In this document: positions 11,787 to 36,007 of the stretch, in pieces
How the letters are laid out: each line of letters opens with the position of its first letter
Numbering within the stretch: the stretch's first letter is position 1
From: a virus
DNA: 36,013 bases
Reading direction: 5' to 3' (one strand)
IMG/VR virus record: IMGVR_UViG_3300040801_003188
Location: 1 to 36,013 of that record
The notes under the pieces: model-generated
What the model was told of the DNA's origin: nothing
Databases searched by the model: none
Seen by the model: the letters and a program-made list of their open reading frames with translations, nothing else
Translations under genes and position numbers: made by a program

Positions 11787-12173
11787 TCAATAGGTTGACA
11801 TTTCAGTTCTTGGGGCAAAACGCGGTATTGCACTTTGCCCAACAGTTACCAAATGTGACAGCATCATTGCCCTACACAAAATGTGGTGTGCGTGATTCAT
11901 CTGGGTGTCAGAATCCACGCTGCCGGGGTCATTTTGAAATTCATTTATGTGCCGCAACAAAGACTGCATAACCATTGGAACCGTATAATACTTTGTCCAA
12001 TCCTGGCCCGGGTGTAATTCCTCCCCCATAGTCATTATTTTGGCCATATTTCTAGTGGCAACAGGACTTATCAAATCAAATCTGAGTTTATTAGTGTCCC
12101 CAGATTTTGGCCCCGACTCGGTGTTGCTAACAACGCTATCGTTTGGTTGCAAATCGACTTTGATATCAGACAT
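11787..12173 (-). CDS. mazZ: MazZ/DUF550-type dNTP pyrophosphohydrolase-like protein
   Basis: 128 aa. KLRFDLISPVATRNMAKIMTMGEE...DWTKY...SLLRHINEF...HAHHILCRAMMLSHL matches my recollection of the dATP/dGTP diphosphohydrolase N-terminal family (K.R.DLip.eal..la.vlt.G..KY...NW...RH...HLaHa.cn). It sits in a cluster with the purZ and HD genes. Confidence 0.5.
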   Translation of the reverse strand: MSDIKVDLQPNDSVVSNTESGPKSGDTNKLRFDLISPVATRNMAKIMTMGEELHPGQDWTKYYTVPMVMQSLLRHINEFQNDPGSVDSDTQMNHAHHILCRAMMLSHLVTVGQSAIPRFAPRTEMSTY

Positions 12174-12544
12174 GCATTACTCTCCCATGTTGATATAGTT
12201 GGTTTCTGGCTTTTGCTGAATCTATCGTACCGCGTTCCCATGACCCACACCCAATGACTTTCTGTGCCATCATAGCATAGCAGTAGCGGCATACCGCCGA
12301 CTTTTGTGCGTTTCCTGTACCATCTGACTTGGGTATCCCTTAAATAAATGTACCCCTTGGACCATTGGTGCACAAATTTTATTTCGATTTGATTAGACGC
12401 CCCGTTCAAAAAATAATCTACATCTGGGAATCCGGGGCTGCTGTCAGCGCATTCTATGTTGTTGGCATGCCCCCCGTTCTTTTCTATTTGTTTAATCAAA
12501 TAGTTTTGGACATCGCGTTCAGATCTTAATTGGTCCTGTCTCAT
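12071..12544 (-). CDS. PD-(D/E)XK nuclease, VRR-NUC-like
   Basis: 157 aa. SERDVQNYLIKQIEKNGG...GFPDVDYF...NQIEIKF gives a D...E-x-K catalytic signature with the VRR-NUC-type N-terminal helix. The 3' 103 nt overlap the mazZ-like gene in another frame. Confidence 0.55.
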   Translation of the reverse strand: MRQDQLRSERDVQNYLIKQIEKNGGHANNIECADSSPGFPDVDYFLNGASNQIEIKFVHQWSKGYIYLRDTQVRWYRKRTKVGGMPLLLCYDGTESHWVWVMGTRYDRFSKSQKPTISTWESNACLISKSICNQTIALLATPSRGQNLGTLINSDLI

Positions 12545-13016
12545 ACTCTTTAACCACCTTTTCTATGCTCGAAAACAAAGCCGGATACGTGTTACGAATT
12601 TTTGCTGTAAAATCGCCCCATTTGTTTAAAAGATAATCCGTAACGTTAGCAGAATGCCTACCAACCCCGTAGTCGGACAAGAACCATATAGCATCCAACA
12701 TATCGGCAGCTTTTATTATAATATATTCAGGCTCCGACAGATCCCTATTGTGACCGGAAGAGTACAGCTGTTTAGTTGAATTAAATAGTCTTTCTTTTGT
12801 TGGGGTAGGTATATCGCCATTTATTATTTCATCTAAATCATGTTCTAGCGCCGCTTTTATTATGTTATCGTCATCGATACCGTATTTTTTTGCAATGGCC
12901 CTGGCTATCATCACCACGTTAAAAGTGTGCTCCGCTAACGACTGGTCCCTGGTAGTAGATACGATTACCCATCTTTTAACGGAATGTGCCCTAAGTATGT
13001 CTTGTATATCAAGCAT
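12519..13016 (-). CDS. datZ: HD-domain phosphohydrolase, DatZ-like (dATP triphosphohydrolase candidate)
   Basis: HD motif residues: LAEHTFNV...ALEHDLDEIINGDIP. The likely start is ATG 13016 (MLDIQDIL...), 4 nt after the purZ stop, with AGGA upstream. The track start at 13154 would overlap purZ by 146 nt. About 165 aa. Confidence 0.6.
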   Translation of the reverse strand: MLDIQDILRAHSVKRWVIVSTTRDQSLAEHTFNVVMIARAIAKKYGIDDDNIIKAALEHDLDEIINGDIPTPTKERLFNSTKQLYSSGHNRDLSEPEYIIIKAADMLDAIWFLSDYGVGRHSANVTDYLLNKWGDFTAKIRNTYPALFSSIEKVVKEYETGPIKI

Positions 13017-14046
13017 TTTTTGTATCCTGGTACTCTTTAATGTCCTCATATTTTGGCCCCCATCCGGTGTAAGACACCCCAACGGATCGGTCAACATGGG
13101 CACCACACATGTTATTGATTTCTTTAATAACATGCTCTGTTGATTCAGGCGCATAATTACAGAAATTCAAAAATATGTTTGTCGGTTGGCAAGCAATTAT
13201 AGCCTGCTTCATTTGAATCCTAGAGAACGAAAATACGCGCCTAACCCTGTTTGTTACCGTGGTCACTTCTGGTTCAACCCCGATGTCTGCCCATTCTATC
13301 TCTTCCTGATCCGGATAGCCGGGGCCGGAGAATCCGTTGGGGGTATTGCCGACCCTAATTGGGTGCAACCTAGCGGATCCAATAACTTTATTCAAATAAG
13401 CGTGCGGCACGCCGCAATCGGACAAAAATCTAGCTGGACCACAATCTCTACTGGTACAATATGGCCAGAACCCAGAGTTTATGCCCAAGGAGTAACCTTG
13501 AGCCCCCTCTATTAGAATGGACCTTGCTTTGTCCATTACGTCTAGCCATGTTGCATGACTTACAACGTTCCAGGAACTATCCAGAACATCGGTAGCCAAA
13601 CATAATTTGTCTTTACTTCTACTCATCTTGTCAACCATAGCAGCCATGGACCCCTGCATTGTACTGGCGATATGGTTTAACGAATTTTGCTCCTGTTCTT
13701 TGTGCCTTTCTTGCAGCACCGTGGCGGCCTCGTGTATCAATACTACGAATCTGAGACCTATGTCACGGCAATGTTGCAATTCGCTATACAGGCGTGCCGG
13801 GTCAAACACAGAACCGGGACCAATCATCACAAATTCAGTATTCTTGCCCATAACACCAGACGGCAGAACTTTATGTACCATCTTTATGTTGTCGCCCATC
13901 ATAAAAGTATGCCCAGCATTTGGCATGTTGGCATTGACTACAACTTCGTAATCTTTCTTAAGGGACAAATACCCTGCAATCAGCCCCTTACCTGTTGAGC
14001 CAAACTGCAGATCGACAATAATGTCCGCTTTTCTTCTGTTGTTCAT
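13009..14046 (-). CDS. purZ: PurZ-like N6-succino-2-amino-2'-deoxyadenylate synthase (short adenylosuccinate synthetase homologue)
   Basis: 345 aa versus about 430 for PurA. It aligns by eye to PurA motifs. [11 protein letters not shown] matches GTQWGDEGKGK, with Ser replacing the PurA Asp. NAGHT and LPSG are present. [23 protein letters not shown] matches [32 protein letters not shown] matches GATTGRRRR. Confidence 0.8.
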   Translation of the reverse strand: [345 protein letters not shown]

Positions 14047-22546: not shown

Positions 22547-23428
22547 TTACTTCCCTCCATTTGGGTGCATGTTGTTGCGACTGAGCTGAATGGTCAAAGT
22601 GATAGCTTTCTTCAACACAGCCTCCATGTTAATTCCGGTTGCTTCATGTATCCACGTCCATGCGTGGTCTGTGGTATCTACCATCCTTTTTGGTATCGCG
22701 GCCACCAATTCATCAATAACTGCGGCAAGCACTTGCTCCTCAATAGCTGCCACTTGCAATGGACTCCTATTAGACCGTTCCTTTTGCTTTGCCGCCTTGG
22801 CCTCGGCCATTTGCTCCTGTTTCTGCTTTGCTTTGGCGATGATTGCCTGTTTGTATGCCGCACCCAAGGTCATCTTGCCTTCATCGACCAGGGGCAGGAA
22901 ATGAGGAGCCCACTCATTGATGTATTTCCTACGCTCGACGTTTTCTTGTTCCTCAGTCAGGGCAGGTTCTTCCGACTCATCGGTAACGGACACCACAGTT
23001 TTATCTTCATCTACCATGGCTTTTACCTGAGATCGAGTGGGCTTTACGCCTTTGGACGCATCCTCCAGGAATTCTTCCCTCAGGATATCAGAAGCCGGTA
23101 TCATTTCAATAAGAACTGTTCGCGGCAATGACCGAGCCCTTGAATCATCAAAAAACTCACGTGCCAGCGCCATCAATTTGTTACGATACTGCTGGCTCAA
23201 CCCCGGCAAAAAAGCTCTGGCCCACGTTCCAAACTCACAGTCCCCGGGCAACAGGGCTCTGGCCTCCAATAGGTGAACACCGGCCTGCATCGCTTTGTCG
23301 GTAGCTTGTTGGGCCAAAGATTCAGCGTTTACAATTTCGGCGTTAATAGATTCGGCCAGTTTGTTAAGCCTGTCTATGGTGTCCAAATCTTTAGGATCAG
23401 GATATTGGTATTTGGTTAATTTAGTCAT
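22547..23428 (-). CDS. Hypothetical protein, DUF3102-like N-terminal region
   Basis: The likely start is ATG 23428 (MTKLTKYQ), 7 nt after GGAGGA. The track start at 23461 lies inside the hairpin. QAGVHLLEARALLPGDCEFGTWARAF...KLMALAREF resembles DUF3102 as I recall it. Confidence 0.45.
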   Translation of the reverse strand: MTKLTKYQYPDPKDLDTIDRLNKLAESINAEIVNAESLAQQATDKAMQAGVHLLEARALLPGDCEFGTWARAFLPGLSQQYRNKLMALAREFFDDSRARSLPRTVLIEMIPASDILREEFLEDASKGVKPTRSQVKAMVDEDKTVVSVTDESEEPALTEEQENVERRKYINEWAPHFLPLVDEGKMTLGAAYKQAIIAKAKQKQEQMAEAKAAKQKERSNRSPLQVAAIEEQVLAAVIDELVAAIPKRMVDTTDHAWTWIHEATGINMEAVLKKAITLTIQLSRNNMHPNGGK

Positions 23429-23456
23429 GTCTATTCCTCCACAGAGTGAAATCACC

Positions 23457-23476
23457 CCCACGCTCCGGGGCGTGGG
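23457..23476 (-). promoter_or_regulatory. Palindrome family copy 3 (7-bp stem cccacgc/gcgtggg, 6-nt loop)
   Basis: cccacgctccggggcgtggg, located between promoter-like 23488-23517 and the RBS of gene 22547..23428. Confidence 0.6.
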
Positions 23477-23487
23477 AGATACGTGTC

Positions 23488-23517
23488 ATGATACCACACA
23501 TCTCCTGTCTATGTCTA
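23488..23517 (-). promoter_or_regulatory. Sigma70-like promoter candidate: TAGACA-18 nt-TATCAT with TGTGG extended -10
   Basis: The - strand reads TAGACAtagacaggagatgtgtggTATCAT. It starts right after the stop of 23518..23838. Confidence 0.45.
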
Positions 23518-23838
23518 CTAATACTTAGATTTTCTGCGTCGGCCCGGCTCGTGAATCGTATTCAACAACTTTTTTGCCAACTCGACAGCACCATCGTGAG
23601 GATTGTGTAACACAGTTTCCCCAGTGTCTACATCATAGTGGAATTTCTCATCCGTCAGTGCCAGCTGTTCGCGTGTCGCACTTCGAGTCAGGATCGGGCT
23701 GCCGTTAATAAAAATTGTCACGGTTATCATGGTTTGGTGTCCTTTGTTTGGTCTGGTCTCCACGCCTCGTTCGAGGAGTTCATAATCGCAGTGCGTACAG
23801 AACACACTGTAGTCCCCGTGCTTTTCACAGTAGGCCAT
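23518..23838 (-). CDS. Hypothetical protein with an N-terminal Cys/His cluster
   Basis: ATG 23838 overlaps the upstream TGA (TGATG), with GGAGGG 6 nt upstream. The N-terminus is MAYCEKHGDYSVFCTHCDYE. Confidence 0.6.
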   Translation of the reverse strand: MAYCEKHGDYSVFCTHCDYELLERGVETRPNKGHQTMITVTIFINGSPILTRSATREQLALTDEKFHYDVDTGETVLHNPHDGAVELAKKLLNTIHEPGRRRKSKY

Positions 23839-24314
23839 CACCTACCCTCCGGTCGCTTCACCAACGTCTCCCGCCAGCGCTCGGGGTCATATTCGGGCAT
23901 ACCAGCGACCCCGCGCAGCGACATCGACGGCGTAGAGCCGCACCAAGACTTTTCCCCAGAACTGGGCTTTTCTGCATAGCCGTACCAGAGACGGGAGCGT
24001 GACGAGTACTGCGAAAAGCGGTCTCCGGCCACCCATTTAATATCAGGGTGGATGTGATCCCACGGAATCATGTCGGAGGTGATGTAAGGCTTAGGGATGA
24101 GGTCAAACTGACTATCCCTGTCCGGGTAAAACCACCCGTCGCGCGGCCATGTGTCCGCACACCACACTCGCAGACCTGGGGCGTAATAGGCAGCGAGAAT
24201 AGGGCGCTTGCCTGGAAGGTCATTAGCGTACAGCCGCACCTCCCAGCCGTTGCGCAGCGTGTGCTCTCGGGTGATGTCGATTTTGTCGGTCATTCTTTGT
24301 CTTTTCAGGGTCAT
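23838..24314 (-). CDS. Hypothetical Trp-rich protein
   Basis: 158-aa ORF, GC-rich, with GAGAGGAAAcgaacATG upstream. Confidence 0.6.
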   Translation of the reverse strand: MTLKRQRMTDKIDITREHTLRNGWEVRLYANDLPGKRPILAAYYAPGLRVWCADTWPRDGWFYPDRDSQFDLIPKPYITSDMIPWDHIHPDIKWVAGDRFSQYSSRSRLWYGYAEKPSSGEKSWCGSTPSMSLRGVAGMPEYDPERWRETLVKRPEGR

Positions 24315-24326
24315 GTTCGTTTCCTC

Positions 24327-24407
24327 TCAGTAAGGCGCGCTCGTGTCTGTGGTTGTGACCTGGATGGGGTCGATGTCGTCAGTCATAAAGCCTTTTTGCA
24401 TTTTCAT
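24327..24407 (-). CDS. Possible 26-codon micro-ORF (MKMQKGFMTDDIDPIQVTTTDTSAPY)
   Basis: Its ATG overlaps the TGA of the upstream gene (ATGA) and it fills an otherwise empty 89-nt gap. There is no other support. Confidence 0.2.
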   Translation of the reverse strand: MKMQKGFMTDDIDPIQVTTTDTSAPY

Positions 24408-24757
24408 TTAAGGCCATCCATTTTTAAGTACCAAGACCAGATGTGGTTTGCTAACAGTGTATTTACTGAGGTTGCCATCTCCTGCTCTCCCGAGGCGAAC
24501 CACCAAACGGTGAACACTGCTGCGGTAAGGTCAATCTTTCCCCCTTCTTGGTGAAGTGTTTTATGCGCCTCCCAACCTAGCCGTACCGCGCTCAAGTCGT
24601 ACTTCGACCAGTGTTTGTCTGGCATGCTCTCAACAAAAGCGCGGAACTCTGGGTCAGGCGTCCCCAGAAACTCACATCTAGCGAGGTACTCAGTATCATT
24701 CATGCCATCACCACTGCCAGCCGAGAGTAGCCCGTAAACAACGAGGCGAATATTCAC
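24404..24757 (-). CDS. Hypothetical protein (start uncertain)
   Basis: 117-aa ORF from GTG 24757. An alternative ATG sits at codon 19 (MNDTEYLARCEF). Confidence 0.5.
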   Translation of the reverse strand: MNIRLVVYGLLSAGSGDGMNDTEYLARCEFLGTPDPEFRAFVESMPDKHWSKYDLSAVRLGWEAHKTLHQEGGKIDLTAAVFTVWWFASGEQEMATSVNTLLANHIWSWYLKMDGLK

Positions 24758-24775
24758 GATATAGCCGCATCATGG

Positions 24776-24943
24776 CTAGTTCCTCTTCTCAGCTACGTTA
24801 GATGCCCCATAAACCCCTAGTGCGCCCAACATGGCGGTTACCCAACCTGTTCCGTCCAGGTGTTCAGTAAACAAGGCAACAGTTGCCAACCCTATGCTGA
24901 TGCACGTCAGCCAGAATTTTCGACTCATATATTTGGGATTCAT
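24776..24943 (-). CDS. Small two-transmembrane-segment protein (55 aa), absent from the ORF track. Holin-like by size and topology only.
   Basis: ATG 24943 lies after GAGGGTGcaaa. Translation: MNPKYMSRKFWLTCISIGLATVALFTEHLDGTGWVTAMLGALGVYGASNVAEKRN, with TAG at 24776-24778. Confidence 0.5.
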   Translation of the reverse strand: MNPKYMSRKFWLTCISIGLATVALFTEHLDGTGWVTAMLGALGVYGASNVAEKRN

Positions 24944-24964
24944 TTTGCACCCTCTATGTGAAAA

Positions 24965-25040
24965 TGGTGGGTCTGGCAGGACTCGAACCTGCAGTCTACC
25001 GATTATGAGTCAGCTGCTTTAACCTTTAAGCTACAGACCC
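24965..25040 (-). tRNA. tRNA with CAT anticodon (elongator Met or lysidine-dependent Ile2), with CCA encoded
   Basis: Folded by hand: acceptor GGGTCTG/CAGACCC; D arm GCTT-AAAGGTTA-AAGC; anticodon arm GCTGA-CTCATAA-TCGGT; variable loop AGACT; T arm GCAGG-TTCGAGT-CCTGC; then A-CCA. G1-C72 is paired, so it is not an initiator. Confidence 0.85.
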
Positions 25041-25054
25041 ACCGAGGTTAAAGG

Positions 25055-25396
25055 TTAAAACTGGAACCCTACCGTGGCACGAATCACTTCAGCGTCATGC
25101 GATCGGCCATAGGAAAATGACACTGTTGGGGCGTGGTCGCCGATACTACGGTGCGTCAGAGTTACGCCAGCCCCAGTCGGGCCATTGAGCACGCCTGCAC
25201 CGCCAAAGTCGATTCGGGTTCGGCCCGGGTCCGGCGTTACACTGGGCAGGGCCATTGCAGCAGCCAAATGGTCACTGGTTTCCTCCACCACAGTGATGTT
25301 GGTTTCCTCCACCACAGTGATCGGGGGGTCAATTTCCTTGCCTCCGGCAAAAACCGAGCAGGGCACCAATGCAGCAAACAAAACAAACTTTTTCAT
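25055..25396 (-). CDS. Secreted mini outer-membrane protein resembling a headless trimeric autotransporter (YadA-type anchor)
   Basis: The signal peptide is MKKFVLFAALVPCSVFA|GG, with AGGAGA RBS. ITVVEET[NS] is tandemly repeated. The C-terminal ~70 aa (LAAAMALPSVTPDPGRTRIDFGGAGVLNGPTGAGVTLTHRS...IRATVGFQF) resemble the YadA anchor consensus and end in an OMP-type terminal Phe. Confidence 0.5.
   Translation of the reverse strand: MKKFVLFAALVPCSVFAGGKEIDPPITVVEETNITVVEETSDHLAAAMALPSVTPDPGRTRIDFGGAGVLNGPTGAGVTLTHRSIGDHAPTVSFSYGRSHDAEVIRATVGFQF
25277..25324. repeat. 24-nt tandem duplication inside the mini-autotransporter gene
   Basis: ggtttcctccaccacagtgat occurs at 25277-25297 and 25301-25321. 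Confidence 0.9.
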
Positions 25397-25419
25397 TGCG
25401 TTTCTCCTGGTTGATTTAC

Positions 25420-25650
25420 CTACGTTACGGCTTCGAGCATTGATTTGAATCTCAGCCTGATGAATTCCGGTGCTTTAATTAACACGCGCACCGGCATTTT
25501 TTGGGCCCGTGCTGACCTCACCATTCTGGCGGCCTGATCAACAGACTCGGCCAGGGTACAATTGGTTGCACGGACGTCCCACGACTGGCCGACAGCACGG
25601 ACCACGAAATTGCTGTCGGCCAGTTCTACCCTAACTACGACCTTGTTCAC
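25420..25650 (-). CDS. Hypothetical protein
   Basis: 76 aa. The GTG start overlaps the upstream TGA (GTGA). Confidence 0.5.
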   Translation of the reverse strand: MNKVVVRVELADSNFVVRAVGQSWDVRATNCTLAESVDQAARMVRSARAQKMPVRVLIKAPEFIRLRFKSMLEAVT

Positions 25651-26168
25651 TCCACGTCACCCCTCTGCTTGACCATGGCCCGCATCGCGGCCTTGACGTT
25701 ATCCAGGGTGATATCCCTACGTTTGATTGCCGCACGCAGCCTGTTGCCGCTGTTCATCCGGATCTGGCCGGGGTTCAGGGATTCGTATTTGGCCATCAGC
25801 CAGCCGGGTTCATCCCCGTCCACAGACAGGGCGATTTCCGCAGCCAAACAAACGTCGTTAGGTGACAAAGGACGCAGAACCTCGGCCAATTCGTCTCCCG
25901 TGTTTTGGGTCTTTTTGCCAGAGTAGGAGACGTCCTCGTGGTACCCAGCGCGGTATTTGGCCAGGATTTGGCTCATTTTCCTGCCGTCAGCTGGCGCGTG
26001 ATCCAGCTGGGATTCCCTGGCCTTGATTACTGTGCCGTCTGGGCAGGTGATTTCGTACCACCCTTTCTGGTAACCCGTGACAGTGCCTTCGTAGGTTCCG
26101 GATTTGGTGGTAGCACGAACCTGAGCGCCGTGGTCGAAAGCAGGCGCGTTGTCTGTTTTGCTGGTCAT
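25647..26168 (-). CDS. LNPGQxRM-motif protein with an N-terminal SH3/KOW-like segment (paralogue of 21603..22037)
   Basis: 173 aa. ATG follows AGGAGACAGACCA. It shares a ~75-aa region with 21603..22037 (SG.KT.N.GD..A.VL...Y..LNPGQ.RM..GNR.RA). Confidence 0.6.
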   Translation of the reverse strand: MTSKTDNAPAFDHGAQVRATTKSGTYEGTVTGYQKGWYEITCPDGTVIKARESQLDHAPADGRKMSQILAKYRAGYHEDVSYSGKKTQNTGDELAEVLRPLSPNDVCLAAEIALSVDGDEPGWLMAKYESLNPGQIRMNSGNRLRAAIKRRDITLDNVKAAMRAMVKQRGDVE

Positions 26169-26257
26169 TGGTCTGTCTCCTAGTCGTTGTCTAAAGGTCT
26201 ATTCTAACACAGCTAGTTGCTCGCTGCAAGCCCTGTTTGTTAACCCGTGGGGTCCCC

Positions 26258-26403
26258 GGCTCGGGGCTCCAGGCTCCGGGCTCCAGGGGGGCTCCGGGTC
26301 GCTCGTCCGGACCACCCCTGGACCCTACCTACCCACCCAACCCCTACCTCTCCCCGCGAACTAGAGAGAGAGTTGGAGCCTGGAGCCCGGGAGCCCCGAG
26401 GGG
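26258..26403. repeat. Inverted arrays of the GGCTCCR heptamer flanking a 34-nt G-free tract (G-quadruplex motif on the - strand)
   Basis: GGCTC[CG]R occurs x4-5 at 26258-26296. The complement GGAGCC occurs x3 at 26375-26395. The tract 26322-26355 (accctacctacccacccaacccctacctctcccc) contains no G. Confidence 0.8.
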
Positions 26404-26411
26404 TTTCTTGG

Positions 26412-26600
26412 TTACCGCTTGACGCCCCAGGTCGAAGCGCCCAGCACCCAGACCTCCTCGCCGTCGTCGAACTCCACAATTGGGCACTGACTGCCGAGTT
26501 CCTCGACGTACTCGGCCAGCCGTTCGGCGACTTGGTCGCCAGTCACGGAACTCGGGTGCTCGACCTCGAACTCTAAAACCACTTTGGTAACTCTGTTCAC
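26412..26600 (-). CDS. First early gene: small, strongly acidic protein
   Basis: 62 aa with about 13 D/E versus 5 K/R. The GTG start follows AGACAGGAGACAGCAGAC and lies about 50 nt downstream of the leftward promoter. Confidence 0.6.
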   Translation of the reverse strand: MNRVTKVVLEFEVEHPSSVTGDQVAERLAEYVEELGSQCPIVEFDDGEEVWVLGASTWGVKR

Positions 26601-26655
26601 GTCTGCTGTCTCCTGTCTGGTTTCGGGGTCAGGCGTTCGCCGACCCTACCCCGTA

Positions 26656-26684
26656 ATTGTACCACACAACACCTGGCTGTACAA
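26656..26684 (-). promoter_or_regulatory. Leftward early sigma70-like promoter: TTGTAC-17 nt-TACAAT with TGTGG extended -10
   Basis: The - strand reads TTGTACagccaggtgttgtgtggTACAAT. Confidence 0.6.
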
Positions 26685-26740
26685 CTACCGTTCGTCGGGT
26701 TGTCGGGTTGTCCTTGTGCGCCACGCCCGCCGAACCGCGT

Positions 26741-26758
26741 CCACGCCCCGGGGCGTGG
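26741..26758. promoter_or_regulatory. Palindrome family copy 4
   Basis: ccacgccccggggcgtgg, an 18-nt perfect palindrome. A half-site-like ccacgccc also occurs at 26721-26728. Confidence 0.6.
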
Positions 26759-26922
26759 GAAGCCGAACCAGGAGCCCAGCTGGGGGCTGGGGTTTGCTGT
26801 TCGCGGTTCGCGTACGGAGGGAAGGGGGCTGGCCCCCCCAACCGGGGCCCCCGGACCCCGGACCCCTGGTTTTTCTTCCCAAAATAACGGTCCGAGATTT
26901 TTAATATATTGCATAGTCTTCT

Positions 26923-26944
26923 TCCCACGCTCCGGAGCGTGGGA
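26923..26944. promoter_or_regulatory. Palindrome family copy 5, abutting the -35 of the rightward promoter
   Basis: tcccacgctccggagcgtggga, a 22-nt perfect palindrome. Both central changes (C>T and G>A) are compensatory relative to copies 1, 2 and 4. Confidence 0.65.
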
Positions 26945-26947
26945 GGC

Positions 26948-26976
26948 TTGACTTTAGCCAAACGATGTGGTATACT
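26948..26976 (+). promoter_or_regulatory. Rightward sigma70-like promoter: TTGACT-17 nt-TATACT with TGn extended -10
   Basis: TTGACTttagccaaacgatgtggTATACT. AGGAG (26991-26995) and ATG 27003 follow. Confidence 0.7.
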
Positions 26977-27002
26977 TTGGGGAAGATGGCAGGAGTACCA
27001 AA

Positions 27003-27284
27003 ATGATCAGGTCTGTAATGCCATATCTATTGGATCACCGCCGACAGTTGCCTCCAATTACGCGGCACACTGTTTTGGGTGAGGATGATCTGTCTTTAGC
27101 TGAGCGCGAAGCTATCCTAGATTATAGGCTATTGTGGGATCACATGATAGCTAATTTCGGCAATGAGGTAATGATAGATGGATTCGCAGAAAAGTTCGAA
27201 TCATTTGAGCCAAACAGATACATTGCCGCAGACCCAAGAATTAACCCCGAAAGAACAAGAATGGTGTCTTCATTATTTGGGTAG
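27003..27284 (+). CDS. Hypothetical protein, first gene of the rightward operon
   Basis: ATG 27003 lies 7 nt after AGGAG. The track start (GTG 26967) lies inside the promoter spacer. The 3' 107 nt overlap terS out of frame. Confidence 0.45.
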   Translation: MIRSVMPYLLDHRRQLPPITRHTVLGEDDLSLAEREAILDYRLLWDHMIANFGNEVMIDGFAEKFESFEPNRYIAADPRINPERTRMVSSLFG

Positions 27285-27690
27285 TTTCGATCATCGTGCA
27301 GCGGCCAAAGCCGTTGGCATGAGCCCAGAATCTGGGATAGGGTTTTTGAACCGTCAACATGTGCGGGATTATATTGCGTCGGAAATGGAAAATCGACGCA
27401 ATACTAGTTTGATTTCAAAAGATATGGTACAATTGCGGTGGTTAGCCCTGTTGCCAAAATTGTTGGGGGAAGAAGAATCGCCGTGGTTAACCAAGGAAGG
27501 GGAACAAATATACGGAAAGAAGCTATACGCATCAGAAGCAGTGCGTGCTCTATCAGAGTTATCGCAAATTTCCGAACTCAAGAAACCACCTACCAAGGAT
27601 GGCAAAACGCCAGTAATGGTTCAGCTTAATTTCAGTGGTCTAAATGGCGGAGAAGTCAGGGAGGTTAACATATTGGATCACGAGGGATAA
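27178..27690 (+). CDS. terS: Terminase small subunit (Terminase_2-type HTH)
   Basis: ELTPKEQEWCLHYLGSFDHRAAAKAVGMSPESGIGFLNRQHVRDYI matches the LTpKq..Fc.eYl..gN...AA..AGYS pattern of small terminases. Confidence 0.8.
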   Translation: MDSQKSSNHLSQTDTLPQTQELTPKEQEWCLHYLGSFDHRAAAKAVGMSPESGIGFLNRQHVRDYIASEMENRRNTSLISKDMVQLRWLALLPKLLGEEESPWLTKEGEQIYGKKLYASEAVRALSELSQISELKKPPTKDGKTPVMVQLNFSGLNGGEVREVNILDHEG

Positions 27691-27692
27691 TC

Positions 27693-28025
27693 ATGATTGC
27701 AGAAGAAAAAGAAGCGAGCGCGATTGAGCGGCACGCACAAACTGCGGTGGGTCTGCTCGTTGCCGCCATCGTCGTCTATGTTGGGTGGCAGGCGCAAGGA
27801 CAGGTGGCGCGGCTTGATGAGCGTGTTCTAGCGATGCAGAAAGAGATGGCAATGCTCAGAGATGAGCTCACCGCGAAGATGAGCGACCGTTACTACGGCA
27901 GCGACGCGCGGCGTGACTTTGAGTTGCGCGACAAGCGCCTTGACTCGCTTGACAAGCGCCTTTCTGCCGTCGAGGAAAGGCTTTGGCGGCGGCCTGATCT
28001 GTACCGTCCAGGAGCCGTCAAGTAA
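27693..28025 (+). CDS. Membrane-anchored coiled-coil protein, Rz/i-spanin-like. A GC-rich gene between terS and terL.
   Basis: 110 aa with one TM segment (TAVGLLVAAIVVYVGW) followed by charged helical sequence. Its position mirrors T7 gene 18.5 between genes 18 and 19. It is visibly more GC-rich than both neighbours. Confidence 0.4.
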   Translation: MIAEEKEASAIERHAQTAVGLLVAAIVVYVGWQAQGQVARLDERVLAMQKEMAMLRDELTAKMSDRYYGSDARRDFELRDKRLDSLDKRLSAVEERLWRRPDLYRPGAVK

Positions 28026-33302: not shown

Positions 33303-33330
33303 CCCCCGGCCAAAAGGCCGGGGGTCTTTT
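33303..33330 (+). terminator. Rho-independent terminator after the capsid gene
   Basis: CCCCCGGCC-aaaa-GGCCGGGGG followed by TCTTTT. Confidence 0.85.
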
Positions 33331-33355
33331 GGGGCAAAACAAGAGGCGGTATAGC

Positions 33356-36007
33356 GTGCCATCACGTAATGACATAAAATTTACCGCATTGCGGGACCAG
33401 GGGTTTGTTGGGTCTTTAGCGGATATGTTGTTAAGTTGGTATCAGTTATATGGCGCCACTTCAAATAGTCTAAAAGACGCAGAATATGAATTTCTTTTGT
33501 CCCAAGGGTCTAGCCCAAGTTGTTTGCGGGACATGTGGGACCAATTTTATATTAGTCGCGGATATACCGGCAGTGTATCCGACATGGATTCTCAGTTCTG
33601 GTCAGATGGTGGTACTTTAAGTGAAATTCAATGGAATACTGTACCGGACATATTGTTCATAGAAACTATTCCGAATACGTATGATGTTAGACAACACCTA
33701 GGAGGCAGTGAACGGAATACGGCCACAATAACCAGGGGACTAGGTGCTCTCCCATCCGGGGTAACATTTAGTAATGGCGTGTACACTTACGACGGGATAG
33801 GAGCTGCTGGTAATCTTATTGGGGATCAGTTAACCGCCAATAGCACTACCCAAACAGAAGTTTCTGCTACATTTGACTTGACAGTGCACGCGTATACACC
33901 CCTTAGTTGGGGCGCAGTGCCGAATGCCGAATTTATTTATGGGATACCTAGTACCATTGATGTTCGCAGTTATTTGCTTGGCACAAACTCACTTGGGGCT
34001 ACTATAAACTTCAACCAGCCGTTGCCTGCCGGGGTTACATTTGATGGTTCTACATTGGCTTATGACGGGGTGGGGGTTGTTGGGGTATCTAATAGTTATG
34101 TAGCGTCTGCAAATGATGGCATAAGTAATGATAGTTCTAATTTGTTTGCTATAGCCATTGCCCCAGACATATCGCTCGCATCTCAATCGTTTACCATATC
34201 TGATAACGGGTCTGGGCAACTGGATAGCCGCGATCCGATTGTTATAGACGTGTCGCTTGCATCTCAGTCGTTTACCGTGTCCGATAACGGGTCTGGGCAA
34301 TTGGATAGCCGCAATCCGTTGGCGGAGCACCCGATGCTGCCGTGGGTCGCGGACTTCTCGACCGGCGACTTCAGCCAGTTCAATTACGACGCCTTTGGGT
34401 CTGGTTTCACCATCGAGTCAGACGGCACGCAGTACCCGGGGCTCACAAACTACGCGCGTACAGCGCTGCCCGGTACTGATGGCTACGAGTACCACATCAT
34501 CGGCCCGCCCACGAACGCTGGGCCGCTGGTTACGGAGTGGTGGTTCGAGGTCGCGATTAGCTACGGCGATTTCGCGGGCGATTGGCCCGTCAACCACAAA
34601 TGCGTGCTGTTCAACTTGACCGATGGCGTCGGAACTAACCGTCGCTATCAGGTCATGCTGTATGCCGCAGATCAGACGTGGACCGGCATCGCCGCAGGTG
34701 AGTACGCCTTCGAACTGATCGAGTGGAGTCCGGCGGGCGCATTCGTGCGTTCCGCGCTTCTGCTTCCGAATCTCGGGCAGCGAGCGCCAATCAATCGCGG
34801 GCAGTGGGACGTGATTCGCGGACGCATCCGGCTCAACACGACTTGGGATGGCACCCTGGCCCTGGGCTCCGGGCCGGGCAACGGCATCATGCAGTGCTGG
34901 CACAATGGCACGCAGGTAATGGACTTCTCGGACGTGTGCTACGTCCGCGACGAGTACCAATGTGGTTTAGGTCGCACCATCATGACAGAGGACGAGGGGA
35001 TAAGCTGGCCAGCCGGTACGCCGACGACAAAGGACTTCGGATTCTTGGAGGTTGCTGAGAACAGCGCGGACCTAACGGCGATGCCGAGCGGGCCAGTGTC
35101 GCGTACTTTCACGCCAACACTGCCGCTAGCTTCTATTGACCTTGCCACCGATGGTCAAGTCTACGAGCTGGATTTGAGTGCGGGCGACTATGAGCCGCGT
35201 GTAACACCTGGAAATGGCGGCGCGCTCACTTACGGTCCAGCAATCGGCTGGAACAATGAGCCGGGGGTCCGGATCGATCCGCCTACCGTTGTGATGCCGA
35301 GTGGGAATGCTGAGTATTGCTGTTTGCTGAGCAATGCGTTGGGCGGGCTTCGTGCCGGGATCACTCGGTTCAACATGCGCTTTATGGTCTATTTCGCGTC
35401 GAATTATGGACAGGCCACGCGAGGTTTCGACACTAAGTTTGTTGGGCCTGCACCGACCTCTGCGCGATGGCTCTCCAACATACAAGCTGCTGGTAACACG
35501 CCCGCCAACATGGCGGCAGTGGCGGTAGCAATCGGCACATTCAAGAATTATTGGACCGAGCCAGATTACACCAGCGAAAATGACGAGTGGTCATGGAATG
35601 CGGAGCCTGGATTGGCGGCACTGTTTGTTGGACCAAGTCCAGATCATACCGGCTCGGCAACGAGCGGCACGCCTGTTATCGGAAATGAGTGGGTTTGCCT
35701 CGAATATCACTACGACTACGCGGGCGGGCCTGCCGGGCATGGCGAGCATCGCCTGCATGTCTGGACCGCTGACGGGGTGTTGTCGGGGCAGATCATGCGG
35801 TGCGACGGTACTATTGAAGGTGGGGCCCTTTGGAGTGGCCCCGGGGAGTGGGGCGGTTTCGAGGCAACTGGGGTGGGCGGTTTCTGGAACGGGGCTATAG
35901 TCCCAGGCACAACAGACGCCCACAGCTTTTATTCACATTTCGCGTTCTCGCCGAACCGCACGGCAGCGAATCCAATCGGCCCGCCTCCGGGCTTTGTAAC
36001 GGGGTAA
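33356..36007 (+). CDS. Large fibre/decoration protein. It has GYTGS..DM repeats, two Ig-like repeats and a 27-aa tandem linker. The C-terminal region is GC-rich, with two ConA-like/polysaccharide-lyase-like segments.
   Basis: The likely start is GTG 33356, 9 nt after AGAGG. The track start at 33329 (TTG) lies in the terminator U-tract. A repeated ~95-aa unit is present (VPD/VPN...YDVR/IDVR...LP[SA]GVTF...YDG[IV]G). The C-terminal segments each end in a jelly-roll-like G.M.CWHNGTQVMDF or HRLHVWTADGVLSG motif. Confidence 0.65.
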   Translation: MPSRNDIKFTALRDQGFVGSLADMLLSWYQLYGATSNSLKDAEYEFLLSQGSSPSCLRDMWDQFYISRGYTGSVSDMDSQFWSDGGTLSEIQWNTVPDILFIETIPNTYDVRQHLGGSERNTATITRGLGALPSGVTFSNGVYTYDGIGAAGNLIGDQLTANSTTQTEVSATFDLTVHAYTPLSWGAVPNAEFIYGIPSTIDVRSYLLGTNSLGATINFNQPLPAGVTFDGSTLAYDGVGVVGVSNSYVASANDGISNDSSNLFAIAIAPDISLASQSFTISDNGSGQLDSRDPIVIDVSLASQSFTVSDNGSGQLDSRNPLAEHPMLPWVADFSTGDFSQFNYDAFGSGFTIESDGTQYPGLTNYARTALPGTDGYEYHIIGPPTNAGPLVTEWWFEVAISYGDFAGDWPVNHKCVLFNLTDGVGTNRRYQVMLYAADQTWTGIAAGEYAFELIEWSPAGAFVRSALLLPNLGQRAPINRGQWDVIRGRIRLNTTWDGTLALGSGPGNGIMQCWHNGTQVMDFSDVCYVRDEYQCGLGRTIMTEDEGISWPAGTPTTKDFGFLEVAENSADLTAMPSGPVSRTFTPTLPLASIDLATDGQVYELDLSAGDYEPRVTPGNGGALTYGPAIGWNNEPGVRIDPPTVVMPSGNAEYCCLLSNALGGLRAGITRFNMRFMVYFASNYGQATRGFDTKFVGPAPTSARWLSNIQAAGNTPANMAAVAVAIGTFKNYWTEPDYTSENDEWSWNAEPGLAALFVGPSPDHTGSATSGTPVIGNEWVCLEYHYDYAGGPAGHGEHRLHVWTADGVLSGQIMRCDGTIEGGALWSGPGEWGGFEATGVGGFWNGAIVPGTTDAHSFYSHFAFSPNRTAANPIGPPPGFVTG
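34166..34320 (+). repeat. 81-nt (27-aa) tandem duplication at the AT-rich/GC-rich junction of the fibre/decoration gene
   Basis: Units start at 34166 and 34247. They encode DISLASQSFTISDNGSGQLDSRDPIVI and DVSLASQSFTVSDNGSGQLDSRNPLAE. Confidence 0.9.

Follow-up and report, generated by a model that had tools for sequence, protein, structure and literature searches.

The DNA analysed here (the window) is the whole 36-kb contig of IMG/VR virus record IMGVR_UViG_3300040801_003188 (36,013 nt), a podovirus. At positions 25055..25396 on its minus strand the ORF list gives an open reading frame (ORF) that starts with ATG, ends with a stop codon at 25055-25057 and is translated into a protein of 113 amino acids, MKKFVLFAALVPCSVFAGGKEIDPPITVVEETNITVVEETSDHLAAAMALPSVTPDPGRTRIDFGGAGVLNGPTGAGVTLTHRSIGDHAPTVSFSYGRSHDAEVIRATVGFQF. 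We refer to it as the mini-anchor. It combines a predicted Sec signal peptide and a short duplicated segment with a C-terminal tail that is likely homologous to the membrane anchor of YadA-type trimeric autotransporters.

The mini-anchor gene and its product

A Shine-Dalgarno motif AGGAG, read from the upstream sequence, is located 7 nt 5' of the ATG (25404..25408, minus strand). The first 17 codons (25346..25396, minus strand) encode a Sec-type signal peptide, MKKFVLFAALVPCSVFA, predicted from hydropathy and the -3/-1 rule with cleavage at A17|G18. In this rule-based reading the N-terminus consists of MKK, FVLFAALVPCSVF and A|GG, i.e. a positive n-region with two lysines ahead of the core, a hydrophobic core of 13 residues and V-x-A at -3/-1, whereby V-F-A precedes two glycines. 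The N-terminus shows the top 15-residue hydropathy of the early arm (2.25) and fits a Sec signal cut after A17. It also contains a short motif, LVPC, which represents a non-canonical lipobox (Pro at -1); its Cys is not conserved in the relative P0002 described below.

Residues 26-41 (25274..25321, minus strand) form a duplicated octapeptide, ITVVEETN/ITVVEETS. Tandem Repeats Finder assigns the underlying 24-nt tandem repeat to 25276-25321 (period 24, 1.9 copies, 100% match). The remaining residues 42-113 (25058..25273, minus strand) constitute the putative YadA-like anchor module, which was delimited by the homology chain and the in-register MAFFT alignment described below. Its layout is DHLAAAMALPSVTPDPGR as helix end and periplasmic turn, four predicted amphipathic strands (~60-69, 74-82, 89-99 and 102-112) and a GFQF end, these being the only strand-like segments in ~55 residues. 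The C-terminus ...EVIRATVGFQF directly reads as hydrophobic at -1, -3, -5, -7 and -9. The last eleven residues thereby alternate between hydrophobic and polar and end with F, a beta-signal-like arrangement that matches the usual pattern of outer-membrane proteins.

The mature protein comprises ~96 residues. Between the predicted cleavage site and DHLAAAMAL there are 24 residues, GGKEIDPPITVVEETNITVVEETS, and the domain search returned no head, neck, stalk or passenger domain match. Judged by its sequence the mini-anchor is essentially passenger-less, i.e. anchor-only, and owing to the missing passenger a role as adhesin is excluded. The GC content of the gene (~55%) is the same as that of its neighbours, hence the gene is not a recent import.

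Much of this had been noticed in a first, sequence-only reading of the locus, which described a strong ribosome-binding site, a signal peptide cleaved after VFA, an ITVVEETx duplication encoded by a 24-nt tandem repeat and an ATVGFQF terminus. These observations are borne out by our data: AGGAG is suitably placed 7 nt before the ATG, the cleavage site agrees with the n-region, core and -3/-1 residues, the repeat is exact and the terminus is present, on the minus strand, which had been left unstated. Likewise the description of a 'headless' anchor with almost no passenger agrees with the ~24 residues found between cleavage site and anchor helix end.

Family size and similarity to YadA-type anchors

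In an exhaustive scan with HMMER, six of 1.84 billion cluster representatives reached E <= 1e-3, namely the mini-anchor itself, P0002 and four long repeat proteins. Of these, P0002 (151 aa) alone is a true relative, with E 7.4e-18 and 52% identity over residues 31-113. The repeat proteins P0003-P0006 match in many short stretches, e.g. the 'TVVEETS' repeats of P0004, and were judged spurious. An identical mini-anchor protein is moreover encoded by a nucleotide-identical gene on two short contigs, which stem from two further JGI samples. Outside the gene these contigs are identical or differ by 1 nt, so that no selection signal is obtainable from them. The P0002 match and the recurrence of the identical protein on further contigs show that the gene is real and conserved; it belongs to an extremely small family of two members.

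P0002 consists of a hydrophobic N-terminus ending in ...VEA|GE, a ~45-residue linker, LAAALALPSVTPEPGRSR... and the C-terminus GWQW. The hydrophobic N-terminus aligns with the mini-anchor signal peptide, and the linkers between signal peptide and anchor are unrelated in the two proteins. The P0002 gene is found on an 8-kb metagenome contig together with small ORFs on the same strand and a DUF932 gene. This contig looks like a phage or mobile-element early region.

Further searches did not enlarge the family. The window protein has no relevant match in Pfam, PHROG or NCBIfam. When searched with tblastn against INPHARED (50,697 phage records), it returned nothing and P0002 nothing real, and tblastn of P0002 against PLSDB plasmids was empty as well. 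A word-indexed search of 5.8 billion proteins, queried with the protein and with the two-sequence profile, retrieved the window protein itself only. Pattern scans of IMG/VR, JGI metagenomes and GTDB genomes yielded no further family members.

The relation to YadA-type anchors emerges mainly when both proteins are considered together. The window protein alone already ranks the AtaA anchor first among PDB sequences, with an E value of 0.88. The profile of window protein and P0002, searched against 177,635 PDB sequences, again places the AtaA anchor (9vnj) first, this time at E 0.0017. This search also matched the Hia anchors 2gr7 and 3emo from end to end, with GFQF on GYQW, albeit at non-significant E values of 0.32 and 0.86, and autotransporter anchors make up three of the five matches listed. 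In addition, 66 genuine anchors served to build a custom hidden Markov model (HMM), against which P0002 scores 15.6 bits over the whole sequence (E ~8e-7 with Z=1; best domain 15.1 bits). Comparison of the two-sequence alignment with the 66 anchors using hhalign gives a probability of 76% and a P value of 2.3e-5 over 75 columns, covering the helix end to the last residue. The score of 30.0 is not reached by any of 300 column shuffles (10.7 +/- 2.3, maximum 21.5) nor by the reversed alignment (11.8), corresponding to z ~8. In the reverse test, the family profile assigns real anchors an average of 9.7 bits vs 0.4 bits for shuffled anchors, and 76% of the real anchors exceed the 99th percentile of the shuffled ones; the shift narrows to 4.8 vs 0.8 bits when only the window sequence is used. 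MAFFT aligns the mini-anchor in register with 42 anchors at 17-24% identity, requiring two residues to be deleted from the LPQAxxPG turn and one to be added to strand 1.

Several results weigh against this assignment. The Pfam model PF03895 (YadA_anchor), with a curated gathering score of 22.7 bits, reports nothing for the window protein even at E <= 10. P0002 obtains 13.3 bits (E 0.088 over all Pfam, model positions 5-60 of 60, ending at the C-terminus) and hence stays under the gathering cut-off. Against the 66-anchor HMM the window protein reaches only 0.5 bits. Moreover, the conserved inward-facing A/G/S of strand 2 corresponds to G/T/T in the mini-anchor.

The structure predictions belong on the same side of the balance. 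AlphaFold2 with the unbiased two-sequence alignment was uninformative, with a predicted local distance difference test (pLDDT) of 38. Padding the alignment with 42 real anchors raised the pLDDT to 65 and led to a model with one helix (26-48) and four strands (60-69, 74-82, 89-99 and 102-112). This layout would be the one expected for one chain of a trimer, but the model is circular, as the alignment imposes the layout, and does not represent independent support. When the padded model was compared with the PDB using Foldseek, no match was significant and none was an anchor; ribosomal protein uS3 came first at E 0.14. We treat this miss as a failure to confirm, uninformative rather than contrary, because a lone chain does not adopt its in-trimer geometry. 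In BFVD, a collection of viral monomer predictions, the same padded and biased model has two matches at E <= 0.001. The best is an unnamed protein of 275 aa (E 1.2e-4); the second and only named one is A0A384ZS52 of Vibrio phage YC (E 1.6e-4, TM 0.45-0.50).

Taken together, homology of the mini-anchor tail to the YadA anchor is likely, albeit sub-threshold and carried mostly by P0002. The YadA-type tail that had been proposed by eye is thus retained by way of P0002 and the profile comparisons (E 0.0017 and P 2.3e-5), whereas the window protein alone has no significant match. Of the checks that had been suggested, the PF03895 search of the window protein came back empty, and structure prediction produced no independent evidence for a barrel, given the pLDDT of 38 for the unbiased model, the circularity of the model with pLDDT 65 and the lack of anchors among its PDB matches. 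For the window protein by itself, one half of the refutation outlined in the sequence-only reading, which paired a missing YadA-anchor match with a predicted non-barrel fold, has thereby come true.

Based on this analysis we lean towards regarding the mini-anchor as a minimal 'headless' type Vc, YadA-like membrane anchor. The precursor would be exported by Sec, three chains of ~96 residues would pre-assemble in the periplasm, and the barrel-assembly machinery (BAM) would insert them as a 12-stranded barrel with four strands per chain. The N-terminal segments with the duplicated ITVVEETx and DHLAAAMAL would fill the barrel lumen, whereby AAAMAL, according to the alignment, would mark the periplasmic end of the lumen helix. 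Residues 18-25 and 26-41 would then represent the whole 'passenger' and probably span the lumen. Since a helix needs ~20-25 residues to cross the barrel and only 24 are available upstream of DHLAAAMAL, ~10 residues at most would protrude and be exposed at the surface. The 24-nt duplication adds eight residues and may set the length needed for lumen filling. For a trimeric autotransporter it has been described that ~80 C-terminal residues suffice for a folded, correctly localised trimer resistant to heat and sodium dodecyl sulfate (Sikdar et al., PMC5670179). A natural version of 96 residues is therefore physically plausible.

Genome context and host

Rightward genes of the window encode terminase, portal, capsid, tail-tube and internal virion proteins, leftward genes helicase, DNA polymerase, primase and matches to the 2-aminoadenine (Z-base) pathway. 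The latter comprise a PurZ-like gene (13009-14046; phrog_1211, E 4e-85) as well as a DatZ-like (12519-13154) and a MazZ-like gene (11787-12173), all of which match PHROG families annotated to this pathway. All three lie on the minus strand (11787-14046) and adjoin the primase and DNA polymerase genes. By its gene content the contig would represent a phiVC8-like Z-genome podovirus. Megablast of a 5-kb segment (23000-28000) against INPHARED gave no close match. The portal is ~43% identical to the portals of Vibrio phages phiVC8/VP2 and Alteromonas phage ZP6, and PurZ is 51% identical to PurZ of Stenotrophomonas phage BUCT555. As all these phage relatives infect proteobacteria (Vibrio, Alteromonas, Stenotrophomonas), a diderm host is supported, in line with the diderm, probably proteobacterial host suggested earlier.

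A tRNA-Met(CAT) gene is located 14 nt downstream of the mini-anchor ORF (24965..25040, minus strand; ARAGORN; Rfam RF00005, 72.5 bits). It is followed by an ORF of 55 aa (24776..24943, minus strand) for a small membrane protein with two hydrophobic segments and no Pfam or PHROG match. Both neighbours had been recognised in the sequence-only reading as a tRNA and a small protein with two transmembrane segments. On the other side, an early gene of 76 aa (25420-25650, minus strand) ends 24 nt before the mini-anchor gene, a spacing that looks like an operon layout. Further upstream lies an early gene of 173 aa (25647-26168, minus strand), which matches phrog_8878 of unknown function. The mini-anchor gene is the fourth ORF of the leftward arm. 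By consensus alone, a sigma-70-like promoter match, TGTACA-16-TACAAT with TG, lies ~1.3 kb upstream of it (26656..26683, minus strand) and points into the leftward arm. In this lytic, phiVC8-like podovirus the leftward arm adjoins the region of divergent promoters, and hence the mini-anchor is probably made early, by host RNA polymerase.

The divergent intergenic region between the leftward and rightward arms (26200-26950) is GC-rich (62-65%) and contains inverted repeats, e.g. 26741-26762/26921-26942 and 26264-26277/26375-26388. Sigma-70-like promoter matches point both ways (26683-26656, minus strand; 26948-26976, plus strand). A plausible acidic ORF of 62 aa is found at 26412-26600 on the minus strand.

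PHROG and Pfam searches across the window recognised neither an endolysin nor a holin nor a spanin, the last including the o-spanin whose absence had been noted before. Between the small and large terminase genes, an ORF of 110 aa (27693-28025, plus strand) combines an N-terminal transmembrane segment with a long coiled-coil-like tail. It has the shape of an i-spanin, its sole match is phrog_4172 (unknown function), and no obvious lipoprotein partner is present. Two large ORFs on the plus strand are situated between capsid and tail-tube genes, where relatives have the endolysin. One encodes 398 aa (116-1312) with a He_PIG putative Ig domain (PF05345, E 2.5e-12). The other encodes 892 aa (33329-36007), ends 6 nt before the contig end and has no meaningful family match.

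In the equivalent early arm of phiVC8, p42 (35985-36437, minus strand) is annotated as 'PagP'; it shows a signal-peptide-like N-terminus and ends with ...YEYRF. It has no Pfam match, and its best PDB matches are porins at E ~0.4; its outer-membrane identity was assigned by eye and could not be verified. Outer-membrane proteins may be recurring in the early arm of this phage group.

Possible roles and comparison with known systems

For the function of a headless anchor we favour, with low confidence, an alteration of the infected-cell surface that reduces further phage adsorption or injection, i.e. superinfection exclusion or protection of progeny from debris. Not being an adhesin, the protein could to this end occupy or alter a site in the outer membrane, or it could engage a partner in the periplasm or outer membrane. 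The idea is built solely on analogy with early exported exclusion proteins such as T5 Llp, to which the mini-anchor shows no homology.

The anchor assignment itself would fall if the mini-anchor were a small beta-rich protein of another kind, secreted, periplasmic or associated with the outer membrane, whose resemblance to anchors is convergent or compositional. This would explain why neither family member reaches the threshold of any curated model, why the window protein alone is noise against anchor HMMs with reverse scores modestly above shuffles, and why the PDB fold search lacks anchors. We nevertheless consider it unlikely, given that three different searches single out autotransporter anchors in a full-length register to the C-terminus and that the signal is abolished by shuffling and reversal. 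Moreover, four amphipathic strands cannot close a barrel alone, and with a signal peptide and a beta-signal an oligomeric barrel is the simplest solution. A different possibility accepts the anchor and makes it a poison: expressed early, it would co-assemble abortively with trimeric autotransporters of the host or flood the pathway, thereby stalling BAM. Host outer-membrane protein biogenesis, including new receptors and the adhesin coat, would be shut and the outer membrane perhaps weakened before lysis. The gene lies in the early arm, as this would demand, and without a passenger adhesion is not the purpose. According to a review from the field (PMC6604945, citing Mikula et al. 2012), it is lethal when two different trimeric autotransporters attempt to heterotrimerise, and the stalled substrates are proposed to block BAM. 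Variants of one anchor, namely wild-type UpaG and W1778A UpaG, do form mixed trimers in the periplasm (PMC5670179). Yet the mini-anchor is very diverged from canonical anchors (17-24% identity), making co-assembly with a host protein doubtful, and anchor-only constructs of bacterial adhesins are described as relatively non-toxic (PMC5670179). In our view such poisoning is improbable, and we put slightly less trust still in its full form, in which the early headless anchor would serve as a weapon against host outer-membrane assembly that blocks receptors and adhesin fibres through abortive co-assembly or BAM clogging and pre-weakens the membrane.

The gene could also be a decaying remnant of a captured bacterial adhesin, in which deletion of the passenger fused signal peptide and anchor and left no selected function. 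The family has only two members in 1.84e9 representatives, the 24-nt duplication of the linker is perfectly identical and hence recent, and the two homologs are unrelated between signal peptide and anchor. Decay is however hard to reconcile with a hydrophobic N-terminus, a complete anchor and a C-terminal aromatic motif kept by both homologs despite ~50% divergence, with a strong ribosome-binding site and tight operon spacing, with the little room for junk in a 36-kb lytic phage genome and with a GC content that matches the neighbours and argues against a recent import. We regard it as hardly probable. The sequence-only reading had raised superinfection exclusion or receptor masking, outer-membrane permeabilisation and lysis as possible roles, of which lysis is disfavoured. 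Least of all do we expect a component of outer-membrane lysis that replaces the o-spanin, or a disruptin, a very improbable function even though no endolysin, holin or spanin is recognised in the window and the i-spanin-shaped 110-aa ORF at 27693-28025 has no obvious lipoprotein partner. The mini-anchor gene lies in the early arm on the strand opposite to the late genes, 2.3 kb away from that ORF and outside any lysis cluster; no lysis genes were found adjoining it, its product has no lipobox, and anchor-only barrels are described as stable and not lytic (PMC5670179).

If the headless anchor is confirmed, it would represent the smallest natural trimeric-autotransporter barrel with ~96 mature residues and a natural minimal unit for studying BAM-dependent assembly of trimeric barrels. 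A strictly lytic phage would spend an early gene on an outer-membrane barrel that is unable to be an adhesin, which points to surface remodelling, exclusion or assembly interference, none of them described for the YadA-anchor fold. Should it indeed interfere with BAM, the mini-anchor would become the first inhibitor of the barrel-assembly pathway to come from a virus, and no natural type Vc protein would be smaller. With two members in 1.84 billion the family is rare, and any wider impact thus depends on mechanism, not on prevalence.

In comparison with the anchors of trimeric autotransporters (type Vc, PF03895; Hia 2GR7/3EMO, AtaA 9VNJ), the mini-anchor shares the small-residue helix end (AAAMAL vs AGxASAMA), the Pro/Gly turn (P..PG+), a set of four amphipathic strands, predicted in its case, the terminal G-[FYW]-Q-[FW] and the C-terminal position, with a Sec signal ahead. 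It differs in being encoded by a lytic phage, in falling below the Pfam cut-off, in a periplasmic turn that is 2 residues shorter and in G/T/T in strand 2. Type Vc adhesins comprise hundreds to thousands of residues, whereas the mature mini-anchor has ~96 and neither head, neck nor stalk. Engineered anchor-only constructs such as truncated UpaG fall into the same size class, but the mini-anchor is a natural gene with its own signal peptide. Brucella genomes encode small anchor-dominated autotransporters of ~200 aa (PMC7688925). Like the mini-anchor these contain little beyond the anchor region; they are however bacterial, about twice as long and have kept a coiled-coil stalk. We also inspected 82 short PF03895 proteins (P0007-P0088, 52-144 aa) as candidates for natural mini-anchors. 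All of them lack a signal peptide and are C-terminal fragments of large adhesins, and they were used only for building the anchor profile. Such fragments arise from contig ends, frameshifts or miscalled starts, and database counts of short YadA-anchor proteins therefore overstate natural mini-anchors.

YadA-type anchors as such do occur on phage genomes. Eib proteins of E. coli prophages are prophage-encoded, full-size trimeric autotransporters. In a tblastn search of INPHARED with the Hia anchor, real phage matches were restricted to the Burkholderia jumbo phages BCSR5 (coding sequence of 1261 aa) and FLC9 (721 aa), while matches in Salmonella and Acinetobacter records look like bacterial contigs. 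The GenBank records of BCSR5 and FLC9 annotate these YadA-anchor proteins merely as hypothetical. A pattern scan of IMG/VR revealed 16 further YadA-anchor loci with ORFs of 349-775 aa and signal-peptide-like N-termini, many on contigs of 160-315 kb. The N-terminal regions of the BCSR5, FLC9 and IMG/VR proteins are often Gly/Asn-rich or collagen-like, and many of the contigs are jumbo (160-320 kb). Unlike the mini-anchor, all these proteins (349-1261 aa) carry long passengers and score as canonical anchors.

The Vibrio phage YC protein A0A384ZS52 (MH375644, 76953-77246; 97 aa) is labelled 'YadA-like C-terminal membrane anchor domain-containing protein' in UniProt and reaches 11.4 bits with PF03895. 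It resembles the mini-anchor in being phage-encoded, ~100 aa long and weakly similar to PF03895. In contrast to the mini-anchor it has neither signal peptide nor upstream extension, ends with ...SFQ and belongs to a large myovirus. As a relative of the mini-anchor family it was rejected because of an hhalign probability of 0.8% and the missing signal peptide, and it is, by these comparisons, a second, unrelated kind of mini-anchor-like phage protein. The YC ORF is conserved in the V. coralliilyticus phages GR28A (96%) and GR7B (35%). A survey of phage databases for mini-anchors, as proposed earlier, thus shows that phage-borne YadA anchors exist, but those found are full-size or of the unrelated YC type. 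An anchor-only protein of mini-anchor size with a signal peptide was found in no other small lytic phage in the INPHARED and IMG/VR scans.

Phages also encode other envelope proteins. Llp of T5, Cor of phi80/N15 and, as outer-membrane 'morons', Lom/Bor of lambda block reinfection or mask receptors. They are lipoproteins or 8-stranded monomeric barrels, and the one of T5 is expressed early. A monomeric 8-stranded barrel of the Lom/Ail/OmpX or PagP kind was rejected for the mini-anchor, as it has only four strand-like segments and no Pfam match. An Rz1-like o-spanin was likewise dismissed, since LVPC is non-canonical and absent in P0002, the gene is part of the early arm and none of its neighbours carries a lysis annotation. 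The mini-anchor differs from Llp, Cor, Lom and Bor in having no sequence similarity to them (no PHROG, Pfam or NCBIfam match) and no lipobox. In common with these proteins it is small, phage-encoded, predicted to be exported and targeted to the envelope, and a functional analogy with exclusion of the Llp/Cor type is possible.

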